DNA of 64,000 nt from an uncultured delta proteobacterium (GCA_963775425.1 CAVZJB010000003.1:1-64000), one strand, 5' to 3'; counted from the first letter of the stretch, positions 2,342 through 34,620 are shown. The notes: generated by a model from the sequence alone, not told the origin. Numbers and translations are program-made.

Positions 2342-5300
2342 ATGCCCACCATCCCCAAGAAGCTCGTCGTCGCGCAGGTTGAAAAGAAGGTCGACGTGCG
2401 CCACGTCGAGGACGTCGGCGCGGTCGGGACCGTGAAGGCCGTCGGCGACGCCGGGAAGGCCGCGCCGCCCGGGGACCGCTTCGTCGGCAACAACGGGGAG
2501 GCCGCGGTGCCGCCCGCGCCGCCGTCCAAGCGCGCGATGCACCCGCAGCTCCAGGTGCAGCACAAGGTCGAGGCCAAGGGCGAGCAGCAAGTCGAGCAGC
2601 AGTACAGCGACTGGGCCAAGAAGTACGACGTCGACACCGCGTCCTACGGCTGGTCCGCGCCGCAGACGCTGCTGTCGCGCCTCACGGCCACCGCCCCGCC
2701 CACGAGCAGCCAACGCGTCCTCGACGTCGGCGTCGGCACCGGGCTCGCGTCGGTCCCGTATCTGGACGCGCGCTCGCAGGTCACCGGCGTCGACGTCTCG
2801 CAGGAGATGCTCGCCGAAGCGAAGGACAAGCACCCCGAGTTCCACCACCTCGACCGCTACAGCATCGACGACCCGCTCGAGACCGCGGGGCTCAAGCCCG
2901 GCACGTTCGACGTCGTGCTCTCGTCCGGCGTGCTGCACTTCAGCAAGGATCTGAAGAAGACCCTCGGCGAGCTCGACCGCGCGCTCGCGCCCGGCGGCAC
3001 GCTCGCGTTCACCTTCATCCCACCGCAGGATCGAAAGTTCGGCGCCAACACCACGCTCAACGACATCGACGGCGTGAAGGCGCACCTCGAGAAGCTCGGG
3101 CTCACGCTCGTGCACGACGAGGAGTTCGTCGCGTACCACGACAAGGGCAAAGCCGATGATCCCGTGCGCTACGCGCTGGTCGTCGCCAAGAAGCCCGGCG
3201 AGACACCGGCGGTGCCGGCGTCGCTCGACCGCACCGCCAGCGTCGATCGTGCGCGCATCGCCCGCCTGATCGGCACGCCGCTCGTCGACGGGCCCGCGAG
3301 CACCACCTGGGTGCCCGCGAACGATCCGCGCATCGCCGCGCAGTCCAAGGCGCTCCTCGACGCGATGCACGCGCAGCTCGCGGCCGGTGGCGACGTCGAT
3401 CTCGCGAAGATCCCGTTCCCCAGCGTCACCGCCGAGAGCGCCCGCCAGGGGTCGCCCGGCGTCGACGCGCTCGTGGTGCTCGCGCACCCGGACGACGAGA
3501 GCGTCTACACCGGCGGCACCGTGGCGGCGCTCACGAGCGCGGGCAAGAGCGTCTCGCTCGCGGTGGCCACCGACGGCGGCGGCGGCCGCGGCGGCAACGC
3601 GGCCGAGCTGCAGAAGAAGCGCGGCGACGAGCTGCAGAGCGCCCTGTCGGCCCTGGGCGTGACGTCGCTGTCGACCCTCGGCTTCAACGACATCGGCAAG
3701 TACAAGGACATGCACCGGAGCGAGCCGCTCACGGGCGGTGACACGCTGCGCACGTGGGGCTTCGACGCGCTCGTCGAGAAACTCGTGAAGCAGATCCGCA
3801 CCGAGCGGCCCGGCACTCTGCTCACCTTCGACTCCACGCGCGATCCGAACTTCTCGCTGCACGGCCACCACATGGCGGTGGGGAGCGCAGCGGCGGTCGC
3901 CGTCGCGCTCGCCGCGGACCCAAACGCGTTCCCCGATCAGTTGAAGGGCGGCCTCAAGCCATGGGCCGTGCTCGAGCATGACGTCGTCATCCCGAGCGGA
4001 ACGCCGGGCGGGCGACAGGTCACGGTCCAGATCGATCCGCAGGCGAAGCGCACAGCGTTGCGCGCGCACGCGTCGCAGAGCTTCTCGCTCGAGCGCGCCA
4101 TCAAGGATCCCGGCGTCACCGAGACGTGGCACACGTTCCAGTCGCGCGAGCCCACGCACCTCCTCGACGACGTCAAGGTGCACGCAGGCACCACCACGAT
4201 ACCGCTGGCGTCCGGAGAGCCGGCGCTCGCCACGCGGCTCCGCGACGGCGACCCCGCTGTGCAGAAGCTCTATCACGCGCGTCCCGTCGAGCAGGTTCAC
4301 GCAGAGACCACCAAGCGACCCATCGCGCGCAAGGAGATCGCCGCGCTCATCACCAAGCAGATGACCGCGCTCGGTCCGCTCACCGGCCCGCAGAAGAAGA
4401 ACCTCGAGCGGCTCCTCGACGAGGGCACCGGCGTCGTCGTCACCGGCCAACAGACCGGCGTCCTCGGCGGCCCGCTCTACTCGCTGTTCAAGGCCCTCGG
4501 CGCCGTAAACCACGCGTCGGCGCTCAGCGATCGCGGCGTGCCCGCGGTCCCCGTCTTCTGGCTCGCGTCCTACGACTCCGACCTCAAGGAAGTGCAGGAC
4601 ATGAAGGCGGTGGGCGCGGGGGATTCCGAAGACGCTCAGCCTCGGCAATCGCATCACCGAGCGGCCCGTGGGCAACGAGAAGCTCGGGCCCGGCGTCACC
4701 AAGATGCTCGACGAGCTCAAGGCGGTCCTCGAAGAGACCCACGCCCCGCACATGGACGCGGCGCTCAAGCTCGCGCACGAGTGCTTCACGCCCGACACCA
4801 CGTTCGCCGCGGGCTTCTCCAAGCTCATCTTCGAGCTCACCAAACAACAAGGGCTGTTGATCCTCGACCCCAACGCGCGCGAATTCTCGTCGCTGGCGCG
4901 GCCGGTGCTCGAGCGCGAGCTCTTCGCGCCCACCACCTCGAAGACCGCGATCGACACCGCCAACGAGCAGCTCGACGCGCTCGGCCTCAAGCCCCAGGTC
5001 CACGGCGGCACCGACCGCCTCAACGTCTTCTTCGTCGACGACGTCGGCAAACGCGTGTTCTTGAGCCGCGCCGAGGACGGCGGCTTCACCACCGGCGGCA
5101 CGCCCGCCAAGCTGAGCGCCGACGACGTGAAGAAGATGCTGACGACCACGCCCGAGCGCTTCACGCCGAGCGCGCTGTTGCGGCCCGTCGTCGAGGATCA
5201 AGTGTTGCCCACGCTGACGTACGTCGGCGGGCCGTCGGAGGTCTCGTACTTTGCGCAGATCGGCGGCGTCTACGACTGGGCAGGCGTGCCGATGCCGCAA

Positions 5301-5984
5301 GTGCAGACGCGGCCGTCGTTCGCGTTCGCGAACAAGAAGGACATCGCTGCGCTCGAGAGCGCGACCGGCCTCGGGATCGACGCGCTCCTCGCGCACGACG
5401 CGCCGCTCGCGATCCTCGGGCGCGCCGGTCTCACGCCGGAGGTCCGCGCCGCGTACGACACCCTCGACGCCGCGCGCGCCGCGGCCGGCGCGGCAGCGGC
5501 CGAAGCGGAGAAGCTCGCGAACGCACACGACTTCCCGTCCCTCGCCGCGCTGCAGAAGTCGGTCGCCGCGGAGGTCGGCGCCGCGCTCGACGGCGTGCTC
5601 GCGGCCGTGCGCACGGCGGGCCTCGAGCGCTGCGACAAGGGCGTCACGTTCGGGCGCGACAAGATCGGGAAGATGCTCGAGGGAATCGAGGCCGACATCG
5701 AGAAGGCCAAGAGCAATCCGGGCTACACGCCGCCGTCGGCCGCGTTCGGGCGCGTCGCCCGCGAGCTCGCGTCCCTCGACGCTCAAGCCGTGAAGGTCGG
5801 GCGCCAATCGCGCCCCGACCTCATCGGCGCGTTCCACAAGCTGAGGCCGGGCAACGAGCCGCAGGAGCGCACGATGACCATCGTGCAGCTCGTGGCCGAG
5901 CTCGGGCTCGACGCTGCGGACACCTTCGTGTCGCTCGCGCAGGTCGGCAAGCCCGGGCGCACGCTCGTGGCGGTCGACGGGTAA
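2342..5984 (+). CDS. bshC: Fusion: class I SAM methyltransferase + PIG-L deacetylase (BshB-like) + BshC cysteine-adding enzyme; +1 frameshift at G5 run 4618-4622
   Basis: VLDVGVGTG (SAM motif I); AHPDDE...HGHH (PIG-L); TGQQTGVLGGPLYSLFKA and PVFWLAS, then in the next frame PERFTPSALLRPVV..LPTLTYVGGPSEVSYFAQ and PQER (BshC). Removing one G joins the frames into ~1213 aa. Confidence 0.85.
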
Positions 5985-32984: not shown

Positions 32985-33033
32985 GACCTCGTTTCGGCCA
33001 GGGACACCCTCGCGGCCGTGGTAGCCTCGTCCC

Positions 33034-34620
33034 ATGAAGCCGCTCGGGGGCACGCGCGTCGCGCGATCGACATCGACGGCGGCGTCAAAGAAGTCCGCCG
33101 CACCAAAGCTCACCAGCGGGGGCAAGAGCGGCGGTGCGTTCGCCGGTACGTCGTCGCTGGTGGCCGAGCGGCCCTCGGGGGGCACCTCGCGCGGCGCCGC
33201 GGTGATGCTGCGCGTGAGCGCGGGCGGGTCGGTGACGACGCTGGCGCAGCACCTCGCGGCGCTGGTGCCGCCGCGCCGGGACCTCACCGTCCTCGAGCTC
33301 GGCCCCCGCGGATCGACGGAAGCCTATGCGCGCGCGCGAGGGCAGGTGACCGCGTTCGTCGACGGTGCCGACGACGCCGCGGCGCTCGACGCGAAGGCCG
33401 CTTACCACCACGTCGAGGTGCGCGGGGGGGCGGAGCTCGGGGCTCTCGGCGTGAACGCCGGCCGCTTCAATCTCGTCGTCGCGCGCGCCGTCGACGTCGC
33501 GCACGCGGGCGACGCTGCACGGCTCACGGCGTCGCTCGCGCCCGGTGGCAGCCTCGTCGTGCAAACGTCCGGCAAGCGCTTGCCGCGCGCGCTCGTCGCC
33601 GCCGCCGAAGCCGACGGCCTCGTCCTCGGCAAGCCCGTCCGCATTGACGGTGGCTTCACCTTCGCGTTGAAGAAGCCGGGCGCACGACCGCCGCTGCCGG
33701 TCGATCGCACGGCTTGCGTCGATCGTGCGCGCGTCGCCGCGTTGATCGACGCACCGCTCGTCGAGGGGCCCGCGCGCATGACCGTCGTCGACGACGCCGA
33801 TCCGACGCTGCGCCGGCAGCTCGATACGCTCATCGACGGCCTCGCTGCCGGCGCCCTCGATCCTGCGGATCTCGTCTTCCCGGATCGCGTCGCAGCGAGC
33901 GCCGTTGAAGGCGCGCCCGGCGTCGACTGCCTCGTCGTCTTCGCCCATCCCGACGACGAGAGCGGGTACGCGGCCGGCGCGCTGGCGGGCATTACTGCGC
34001 AGGGGAAGCGCGTGCACTACGCCGTGGCCACCGATGGCGGCGGCGGCCTCGGCGGCAGCGGAGCCGACCTCGCTGCGACCCGCCTGCACGAGCTCGATGG
34101 CGCGGCACAGGCGCTGGGCATCGGCGCGATCAGCGTGCTCGGGCTCGATGACGCCGGCATGTACACCGACGATCACCGCGCCGTCCCCGTCACCGCCGCC
34201 GACGCGCTCGCGCTGTGGGGAGTCGACGCCGCGCTCGAGAAGCTCGTGCGCGCGATCCGTGAGCAACGGCCGCGCGCGATCCTCGGCTTCGATCCCACGC
34301 GCGATCCCGACTGGGGCCTGCACGGCCACCACCTCGCGATGGGCCTCGCGACCGCGGTCGCGGTTCACCTCGCCGCCGACCCGCGCGCGTTCCCCGAACA
34401 GGGCCTCGCTCCGTGGAGCGTCGCGGAGCAGTGGGCCGTGGTGCCGCCGGGATCACGCGGCGGTCGTCAAGTGACGGTCGACGTCGACGCCGCGAAGAAG
34501 CGCGCGGCGCTCGCTGCGCACCACACGCAGTCTTTTTCGCTCGACGGCAAGCTCGCGCAGCCCGGCGGGACGGAGCGCTGGCACCTGTTCCAGGCGCGCG
34601 TCGCACCGACGTTGTTCTGA
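33034..34620 (+). CDS. Degenerate methyltransferase + PIG-L deacetylase (paralogue of the N-terminal part of the 2342 fusion)
   Basis: VLELGP, LAPGG, DRTACVDRAR, AHPDDE, ATDGGGG, LHGHHLA, SFSL shared with the 2342 protein. Confidence 0.85.
   Translation: MKPLGGTRVARSTSTAASKKSAAPKLTSGGKSGGAFAGTSSLVAERPSGGTSRGAAVMLRVSAGGSVTTLAQHLAALVPPRRDLTVLELGPRGSTEAYARARGQVTAFVDGADDAAALDAKAAYHHVEVRGGAELGALGVNAGRFNLVVARAVDVAHAGDAARLTASLAPGGSLVVQTSGKRLPRALVAAAEADGLVLGKPVRIDGGFTFALKKPGARPPLPVDRTACVDRARVAALIDAPLVEGPARMTVVDDADPTLRRQLDTLIDGLAAGALDPADLVFPDRVAASAVEGAPGVDCLVVFAHPDDESGYAAGALAGITAQGKRVHYAVATDGGGGLGGSGADLAATRLHELDGAAQALGIGAISVLGLDDAGMYTDDHRAVPVTAADALALWGVDAALEKLVRAIREQRPRAILGFDPTRDPDWGLHGHHLAMGLATAVAVHLAADPRAFPEQGLAPWSVAEQWAVVPPGSRGGRQVTVDVDAAKKRAALAAHHTQSFSLDGKLAQPGGTERWHLFQARVAPTLF

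Follow-up and report, generated by a model that had tools for sequence, protein, structure and literature searches.

The first 64 kb of contig C3 in the genome of an uncultured delta proteobacterium (GCA_963775425.1; CAVZJB010000003.1, coordinates 1 to 64000) was analysed, and this stretch of DNA is referred to here as the window. The genome, labelled G000, comprises 8.26 Mb in 18 contigs with a GC content of 70%, and is 94.6% complete. As judged from sequence comparisons, the region from 2.3 to 34.6 kb in the window is one copy of a rare, undescribed and horizontally mobile gene system of the Myxococcota, in which unrelated enzymes and large proteins carry polar N-terminal leaders, often including a short D-x-[F/W] motif. 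An original prediction, made from the window alone, had described such leaders and had read them as marking enzymes exported to act in prey or host cells. The sequences firmly support the leaders as real and as a conserved property of the system, and the proposal that they are a shared tag of co-functioning genes was upheld by their conservation across genomes of different GC content, by the common motif, and by the recurrence of the genes as a cluster or as modules in four other genomes. The idea of an exported or effector arsenal was supported by no test, and no secretion genes, chaperones, Tad marker or complete injectisome cluster were found in the searches described below. It is tentatively proposed that the leaders serve to attach the enzymes, within the producing cell, to beta-sandwich proteins that the system itself encodes.

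Leaders and the D-x-[F/W] motif

Genes between 2.3 and 34.6 kb were called by combining a frame analysis of GC content at third and second codon positions (GC3 and GC2) with lists of open reading frames (ORFs) and profile searches against Pfam and NCBIfam (Table 1). Seven of the nine starts named in the original prediction open real genes with translated extensions rich in Ser, Thr, Pro, Lys, Ala and Gly; of the other two, that at 55609 belongs to a small ORF and that at 19737 is a weak case. GC3 was 0.75–1.00 in every 60-nt bin from the starts at 2342, 5987, 11589, 13077, 15131, 24100 and 33034, compared with 0.30–0.85 upstream, and an in-frame stop codon is located a few codons before several of the proposed starts. 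The leader-bearing genes had correctly been described as lacking a signal peptide (maximum of a Kyte-Doolittle 12-residue window no higher than 1.38), and no transmembrane segment was found in g01 to g14 (19-residue window maximum no higher than 1.81).

Background values were obtained from 5,588 genes called over the whole genome by one crude rule, and a disorder-propensity scale was applied to the first 40 residues of each product. The g06 and g08 leaders fell at the 98th to 99th percentile, followed by those of g14 (91st), g07 (89th), g11 (84th) and g01 (82nd), and the content of Ser, Thr, Pro, Lys, Ala and Gly in the g14 leader was at the top percentile of the genome. The leader of g09, which starts at 19737, is unremarkable in composition (74th percentile), as the original prediction had allowed, though D-G-F occurs at residue 62. 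Profile matches begin deep inside the proteins, at residue 80 for the BshA model and at residue 78 for the M14 peptidase model, and the alignment of g14 with g01 (43% identity) begins at g14 residue 69.

The orthologues keep their extensions, including in the 45%-GC genome G016, where the M14, g08 and g09 proteins have polar leaders rich in Asn, Gln, Ser and Lys. All seven true relatives of g08 have an N-terminal extension, and leader residues can be aligned between orthologues, as in MTIRGP/MKIRGP. Full-length members of the g07 family have variable N-termini of approximately 60–100 residues ahead of the first long helix, with a conserved block before D-V-W. BshA homologues with at least 48% identity are 448–495 amino acids (aa) long and include the extension, except for one 402-aa protein on a 1.3-kb contig, whereas those with no more than 41% identity are 377–422 aa, except for a 484-aa protein and a 256-aa fragment. 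The statement that canonical BshA has no leader was thus borne out, as the model aligns only from residue 80 and the distant homologues are shorter than the tagged clade. Outside the motif, leader sequence is poorly conserved in the g07, g08 and BshA alignments.

A bias was also seen in the first dozen residues. With manually assigned starts, 13 of 14 cluster proteins have no Asp or Glu at positions 2–12 and have Ile, Leu, Val or Pro at position 3 or 4, a rule that was chosen after the sequences had been seen; with automatic starts, the count was 9 of 16, and the genome rate is 24.3%.

The original prediction that the leaders often contain D-x-[F/W] holds in part, since five of the eight named cluster genes have the motif within their first 80 aa, compared with 14.9% of the 5,588 background genes (nominal P 0.003, post hoc), and is missing from the genes starting at 24100 and 33034. 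To extend this count, 41 leaders were collected (BshA, 11; g07, 12; g08, 8; M14, 2; g11, 3; g01/g14, 3; g09, 2), and the motif was found in 23 of them (6, 9, 4, 1, 0, 1 and 2, respectively), a figure that overstates the independent support because family members are kin by descent. In 1,000 composition-preserving shuffles, 4.3 ± 1.9 leaders were expected to carry the motif and none of the shuffles reached 23, and in five of seven families at least half of the members have it (0.5 families expected). Six control motifs (E-x-[FW], [FW]-x-D, D-[FW], D-x-x-[FW], D-x-[LI] and N-x-[FW]) were all at chance in the same 41 leaders. When the five G000 sequences in which the motif was first noted are set aside, it remains in 18 of 36 leaders. 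It is located at residues 20–66 in at least four unrelated families, within leaders that are otherwise divergent, and a further unrelated protein, a ligase of the cysteinyl-tRNA synthetase (CysRS)/MshC type in genome G348, has D-A-W within an 85-aa leader. The leaders carry a shared short motif and therefore very probably serve one common partner.

Beta-sandwich proteins, distribution and the thiol pathway

Three paralogous genes in the cluster, labelled parA1 to parA3 here, encode proteins of approximately 480 aa without a leader. An AlphaFold model of the parA2 product (coordinates 29577–31019), built from a 24-sequence alignment, had a mean pLDDT (predicted local distance difference test) score of 91.9 and consists of three beta-sandwich domains, opening directly with a structural strand and having no disordered N-terminal signal. 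A Foldseek search of the PDB with this model gave no match at E ≤0.001, no usable match to parA2 was found in the ESM Atlas, and VIA-align returned C2 and immunoglobulin-like sandwiches at Z ≤7.7, a level that the tool calls common. Among 5.8 billion proteins, the family has 27 members, each of them unnamed or 'hypothetical' and from sources labelled Myxococcota. In a profile comparison, the C-terminal domain of g05 aligned with the central one of the three parA domains (hhalign, 82.7% probability, E 9.5e-6), and the cluster is predicted to encode six beta-sandwich proteins, namely the three parA products, g05 by profile match, and, by eye, the g04 C-terminus and g10.

Of 401 Myxococcota genomes that were sampled, five, which belong to four different families, were found to have parA genes, and g07 is present in 3 of 41 close relatives. 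A profile scan of contigs with the g07 alignment detected no loci beyond two already known. A block of g05, g06 and g07 recurs in G001 (65% GC), and a block of g06, g07, g08, a g05-like gene and g09 recurs on an 11-kb contig of G016, a 2.8-Mb genome. Elsewhere, parA is repeatedly paired with genes of the g04 type (as in G001 and G016) or of the g11 type, and is also found with g07, g09, g10 and a methyltransferase gene. Genes for beta-sandwich proteins accompany tagged ones at the parA-centred loci of G000, G001, G016, G131 and G348 where the neighbours could be matched. One locus in G348 (L035) has parA without another system gene, and the 11-kb locus in G016 (L005) has a g05-type protein instead. 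The modules of G348 are dispersed over four contigs, and all system members in the genome of the window are confined to the one cluster.

The g07 family has 27 representatives among 1.84 billion sequences, with D-x-[FW] in 9 of the 12 full-length members; its model had no Foldseek match, and VIA-align fitted only a helical hairpin (Z ≤6.8). The g08 family consists of seven proteins, and the other matches listed are ordinary dikinases, nearly all with an ATP-grasp domain. An origin as a defence system or in a phage is not supported, since PADLOC gave one weak match (g04, E 2e-4) and PHROGs generic kinase and esterase matches only.

The cluster holds a BshA-type glycosyltransferase (g02), a fusion of a methyltransferase, a PIG-L deacetylase and BshC (g01), and a second PIG-L deacetylase/amidase (g14), and its enzymes are accordingly predicted to include a complete N-methyl-bacillithiol-type thiol pathway. 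The match of g02 to TIGR03999 covers residues 80–457 with 245.6 bits, under the cut-off of 273.7, and the BshC part of g01 (TIGR03998/PF10079) gave two partial matches, of 96.2 and 187.8 bits, that lie in separate frames (cut-off 265.8). Within g01, the frame changes in a stretch of five G (4618–4622), and the orthologue in G001 is one uninterrupted frame of 857 aa. Similarly, g11 switches frame at a run of five C (27130–27134), where the gene starting at 24100 continues into the frame at 27153–29168, and the g11 relatives found in G131 and G348 each occupy a single ORF (1,596, 1,575 and 1,936 aa). As these relatives are uninterrupted, g01 and g11 are each read as one gene, with the frame changes probably being assembly errors in homopolymers. 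The starts at 2342 and 5987 share one long ORF merely by an accident of frame.

The fusion of methyltransferase, PIG-L and BshC domains also occurs in G001 and probably in G131. BshC was found in only 3 of 41 relatives, namely G000, G001, which has the system, and G017, where the gene is an ordinary, unfused one and has PIG-L as a separate neighbouring gene. In G348, a CysRS/MshC-type ligase (locus L034, contig C8, coordinates 6968–8368) is encoded beside a stand-alone methyltransferase, parA and g07, and just a weak BshC-like match was detected outside the module; this ligase looks like a non-orthologous replacement of the BshC fusion within the system. The thiol pathway thus appears, from its distribution, to be linked to the system rather than to be housekeeping in the lineage. 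The original prediction had suggested a search for canonical leaderless bsh copies elsewhere; none were found, and the bshA and bshC of the cluster are the sole copies in the genome, a point included in one of the refuting conditions that the prediction had set for itself. A dikinase paralogue is present on contig C11 of the same genome.

The methyltransferase part of g01 has METTL27 and phosphatidylethanolamine and phosphoethanolamine N-methyltransferases as its nearest solved relatives. This kinship with amine N-methyltransferases fits N-methylation of a bacillithiol-type thiol, without proving it. The domains resemble those of the bacillithiol and N-methyl-bacillithiol pathway (BshA, BshB and BshC, plus NmbA) in combining BshA-, PIG-L- and BshC-type domains with an S-adenosylmethionine (SAM) methyltransferase, but differ from it in the fusion of methyltransferase, deacetylase and BshC, in the leaders on BshA and on the fusion, and in belonging to a mobile system and not to housekeeping. 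In the available text of a 2025 paper on the distribution of NmbA (PMC12719100), most Myxococcota with the pathway are without NmbA, and the words 'fusion' and 'fused' do not occur.

Only positions 350–865 of the TIGR01828 profile were matched by g08 (649.7 bits, cut-off 843.45), and the PF01326 ATP-grasp domain was not found in g08, whereas the swivel histidine and the phosphoenolpyruvate (PEP)-binding barrel are kept. As it has no ATP-grasp domain and scores under the cut-off, g08 was rejected as a canonical pyruvate, phosphate dikinase, though it could take phosphate from PEP without the full dikinase reaction.

Docking, export and other readings of the leaders

The products of the system could be divided into two soluble classes, tagged enzymes and large proteins, and beta-sandwich proteins. 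The tag would have three parts, namely a basic, acid-free first dozen residues, a variable linker rich in Pro, Thr, Ser and Ala, and in most cases D-x-[F/W] approximately 40–60 residues from the start. The motif may be a docking signal read by one common partner, most likely the beta-sandwich proteins of the system, in which case the leaders would bring the enzymes together as a scaffolded multi-enzyme body in the producer's cytoplasm, with no exit from the cell. An internal partner is favoured because beta-sandwich proteins alone accompany the tagged enzymes at most of the loci examined, and because the tagged set includes a full pathway needing cytoplasmic substrates. A thiol pathway that needs UDP-N-acetylglucosamine, an acceptor (malate or one like it), cysteine, ATP and SAM fits the cytoplasm better than it fits injection enzyme by enzyme, and the tagging of a whole pathway in the same way makes most sense if the enzymes act together at their substrates.

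Docking has partial parallels in known systems. The encapsulation peptides of bacterial microcompartments and the cargo-loading peptides of encapsulins also place a short terminal element with a poorly conserved linker on unrelated, clustered enzymes, and several paralogues of a non-enzymatic structural protein are likewise encoded alongside; however, no microcompartment shell family (Pfam) or HK97-fold protein was found among the cluster proteins, and the candidate partner is a beta-sandwich. Encapsulin cargo was further rejected as an explanation, as PF04454 was found in none of the five genomes that have the system (family-1 shells searched). Cohesin-dockerin pairing in cellulosomes similarly combines a multi-domain beta-sandwich scaffold with varied enzymes that bear a docking element on Pro/Thr-rich linkers, but no cohesin or dockerin match was found in the cluster proteins, these proteins have no secretion signals, and docking would rely on a short linear motif in place of a folded module.

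Several points weigh against docking. We infer both the binding of the leaders to the beta-sandwich proteins and the part of the motif as docking signal. The beta-sandwich fold is functionally uninformative, the best structural matches being C2 domains (Z 7.5), and part of the g07 leader is not disordered, residues 10–42 being predicted as helical in a structure model (pLDDT 79.2). The leaders of g06, g11 and g14 are without D-x-[FW], the kinship noted above lowers the weight of the motif count, and in g08 and BshA the first helix begins right at the motif, which is possibly part of the fold. The N-terminal rules also fit type III signals, and ordinary cytoplasmic enzymes carry similar low-complexity N-termini, so that composition alone proves nothing.

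It is possible, though doubtful, that the leaders represent a new class of targeting signal, either loading enzymes, a self-contained low-molecular-weight-thiol pathway among them, onto or into a beta-sandwich assembly that would be a new scaffold or compartment carried on a mobile island, or labelling 'metabolic effectors' for a new export route in flagellated Myxococcota that may be predatory or associated with hosts. If the leaders are docking or sorting signals, they would be a new way for bacteria to group unrelated enzymes, and a leader with D-x-F/W near parA-type genes would serve as a sequence handle for finding metagenomic members. Whichever reading holds, six orphan protein families are now placed in a genomic context with a hypothesis open to testing, and a bacillithiol-type thiol pathway is linked to a mobile multi-gene system; the CysRS/MshC-type ligase that takes the place of BshC in one genome points to the thiol being integral to the role of the system.

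Export is a rather unlikely explanation. The leaders would then direct the enzymes, and perhaps the beta-sandwich proteins, by a flagellar or type III-like or a non-classical route to act outside the cell or in prey, and would supply a first candidate cargo set for type III-like machines of the Myxococcota. The tagged proteins would resemble type III substrates, a group that takes in injectisome effectors, flagellar export substrates and the effectors of the needleless type III system of M. xanthus, in an uncleaved, disordered, Ser/Thr/Pro-rich N-terminal tag with acid-free early residues, in the lack of a Sec signal and in an island-like, patchy distribution. The resemblance of the first-dozen rule (13 of 14 against 24.3%) to type III signals is a heuristic. 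Export is also in keeping with a tag that is N-terminal, looks uncleaved and is rich in Ser, Thr, Pro and Lys, with the lack of Sec and Tat signals on the cluster proteins, with the location of this patchily distributed island beside remnants of IS66, an insertion sequence (IS), and of an integrase, and with a modular system of very large, variable proteins reshuffled among genomes. A conserved D-x-[F/W] motif 40–60 residues from the start is not a known feature of type III substrates, and the cluster differs from their loci in having no apparatus or chaperone genes and in a cargo that includes a whole biosynthetic pathway, whose four activities would be odd as injected cargo. The beta-sandwich proteins, which begin with a structural strand, would lack a disordered signal.

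No secretion-system genes were found in or beside any locus examined, and no conserved family of small chaperone-like ORFs was detected, as an all-against-all BLASTP of 23 small ORFs found the g10 pair only. The type III machinery that the original prediction had suggested looking for was found in part, a flagellar apparatus being present and a complete injectisome cluster not. The flagellar set (C9:334853–381210 in G000) includes flagellin, FlhA, FlhF, FlhG, FliA, FlgH, rod proteins, FliF, FliM/N and FlhB; flagella are unusual among cultured members of the phylum Myxococcota. The other type III paralogues in this genome are scattered, solitary genes, namely a second FHIPEP gene (C4:94448–96469), which sits between lexA and sugar-nucleotide genes of the O-antigen type, an FlhB-type gene (C16:1085376–1086395), a YscJ-type lipoprotein gene (C9:218190–218714) and a FliMN_C gene (C9:112885–113094). 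FHIPEP genes are present in all five genomes with the system, and in G348 two contigs, neither of which holds its flagellin genes, have FHIPEP copies with FliMN_C genes within a few kb; yet FHIPEP is found in 34 of 41 relatives with or without the cluster, and its presence is therefore uninformative either way. The suggested Tad route fared no better, as RcpC/CpaB (PF16976), the sole marker searched, was not found in the genome of the window and was found in only one of the five system genomes (G348). The original prediction had as its background that predatory myxobacteria kill on contact with Tad (Kil) and type III-like machines, which the literature bears out; machinery of that kind was not found as such in this genome. 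The contractile sheath (PF04984) was likewise found in one of the five (G131) and not in the genome of the window, and a role as cargo of contractile injection was rejected since no sheath gene was found in the other four. The effectors of the needleless type III system of Myxococcus are, in the available text of PMC12075869, still unidentified, a point in favour of export.

In a variant of export, the leader would be a colicin-like disordered translocation domain with the short motif engaging a protein of the target cell. Such domains in colicins and pyocins, with their TolB and TonB boxes, would be alike in having a signal-less, disordered N-terminus with a short motif of the Asp/Gly/Trp type. 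The motif in the cluster is different, no immunity or lysis genes were recognised, and the catalytic parts are of biosynthetic type, not nucleases or pore-formers.

It is unlikely that the leaders have no shared targeting role and are low-complexity spacers, regulatory tails or initiation regions, with the Asp-x-aromatic motif belonging to the fold of each individual protein. The poor conservation of the leaders beyond the motif, the position of the motif against the first helix in g08 and BshA, and the modelled helix in g07 are all consistent with this. Leader-like N-termini are also not unique to the cluster, as the GlgB branching enzyme (C3:697796–700141) and a LOG-family enzyme (C3:454304–455827) have Lys/Thr/Pro-rich, acid-poor extensions of approximately 45–60 residues. 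A strict leader filter was passed by 64 of 3,164 genes longer than 300 aa genome-wide, many of which look like start-call artefacts; however, three of the 64 are in the cluster, which corresponds to 3 of approximately 12 long genes compared with 2% genome-wide. The extensions moreover persist in the 45%-GC genome, where low complexity driven by GC content cannot explain them, and in at least four unrelated families the motif lies about equally far from the start, with the six control motifs at chance.

That the leaders are annotation artefacts with true starts downstream, which the original prediction had named as a possible refutation, is highly improbable, since, although ORFs at 70% GC often run upstream of the true start and automatic and manual starts differ (2321 and 2342; 13119 and 13077), the coding-type GC3 signal sets in at the proposed starts, several of these follow closely on an in-frame stop, orthologues can be aligned along their leader residues, and low-GC orthologues are extended too.

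Gene map, flanks and further observations

The features of the region are listed in Table 1. The g04 gene probably starts at the ATG at 10732 and not at the TTG at 10801, as judged by eye from the N-terminus of the G016 homologue. The island border was probably broken by an IS insertion, which in turn probably caused the contig break. To the right of the cluster, the gene at 34754 opens with a lipoprotein signal, and what follows in the window has no relation to the cluster (genes for ABC exporters, a P-type ATPase and Sir2, among others). No tRNA genes were found in the 64-kb window.

Table 1. Features at the left end of the window and in the cluster (coordinates in nt from the first base of the window)
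Feature	Coordinates	Strand	Basis or remark
IS66-family remnants (transposase N-terminal part; TnpB/Orf2)	3..1144	-	Pfam zf-IS66, DDE_Tnp_IS66, LZ_Tnp_IS66, TnpB_IS66; left flank, contig start
Truncated tyrosine-integrase gene, N-terminal SAM-like domain only	1376..2098	-	Pfam Phage_int_SAM_3, E 4.6e-8; adjoins cluster on left
g01: leader of ~96 aa, SAM methyltransferase, PIG-L deacetylase, BshC	2342..5984	+	Pfam, NCBIfam; D-R-F at nt 2474-2482
g02: BshA-type GT4 glycosyltransferase, 79-aa leader	5987..7381	+	TIGR03999; D-Q-F at nt 6107-6115
g03 (parA1): orphan, three putative beta-sandwich domains, no leader	7425..8885	-	49% identity to 29577-31022
g04: function unassigned; coiled-coil middle and beta-sandwich-like C-terminus (both by eye)	8885..10732	-	Always paired with a parA gene
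g05: 248-aa protein; C-terminal domain similar to parA middle domain	10837..11583	+	hhalign; orthologues in G001, G016
g06: M14-type peptidase-like, 77-aa Pro/Thr/Lys-rich leader	11589..13067	+	Pfam Peptidase_M14 from residue 78
g07: orphan 685-aa protein with leader	13077..15134	+	D-V-W at nt 13194-13202
g08: leader, degenerate and intact PEP-utilising modules, weak PlsC-type acyltransferase match	15131..19717	+	Pfam; D-V-F at nt 15257-15265
g09: 1,264-aa esterase-family protein, weak leader	19737..23531	+	Pfam Esterase PF00756; D-G-F at nt 19920-19928; G016 orthologue
g10: small Cys-rich protein; true start possibly ATG at 23652	23562..24059	+	41% identity to 118-aa G131 ORF, residues 50-158
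g11: ~1,690-aa repeat protein with leader, no assigned function, two frames	24100..29168	+	Sequence; single-ORF relatives in G131, G348
Possible 124-aa ORF, status uncertain, between g11 and parA2	29225..29599	+	Coding-like GC3; no family, no conserved relative
g12 (parA2): beta-sandwich paralogue	29577..31022	+	Paralogy, family search, structure model
g13 (parA3): beta-sandwich paralogue	31120..32634	+	30-32% identity to parA1 and parA2
Possible 117-aa ORF, status uncertain, after parA3	32631..32984	+	Coding-like GC3; no family, no conserved relative
g14: 68-aa Ser/Thr/Lys/Gly-rich leader, methyltransferase-like region, second PIG-L deacetylase/amidase	33034..34620	+	Pfam PIG-L

Both frame changes in the cluster sit in 5-base homopolymers, which suggests indel errors of a long-read assembly that may also affect other genes. 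The start at 55609, outside the cluster, had been included in the original prediction as showing the same leader pattern, but opens an 86-aa ORF, not a gene for a large enzyme, that ends at 55869 and has no Pfam match. The predicted product is polar at the N-terminus, with a run of Thr and the sequence Q-D-S-F, and is rich in Gly and Leu in its C-terminal half; with a GC3 of just 0.76 it is uncertain whether the ORF is real. The gene that follows, at 56047, opens with a lipoprotein-type signal. Elsewhere in the genome, two genes on contig C11 (561550–562551 and 279401–280432) encode proteins with peptidoglycan-binding domains that have short polar leaders and no recognisable Sec signal.

At locus L032 in G348 (contig C4), a 1,162-aa protein with a metalloprotease domain of the anthrax lethal factor type (Pfam ATLF, E 1.5e-8) and two AAA ATPase domains is encoded at 21–3509. 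A long ORF containing a parA-g11 module lies approximately 600 bp away, and an esterase-family gene is located on the opposite side of that module. Many of the genomes of the same order (G015 to G037) are only 0.3–2.5 Mb in size with high completeness, some being in one or two contigs, which suggests host-dependent or otherwise reduced lineages near this 8.3-Mb genome.

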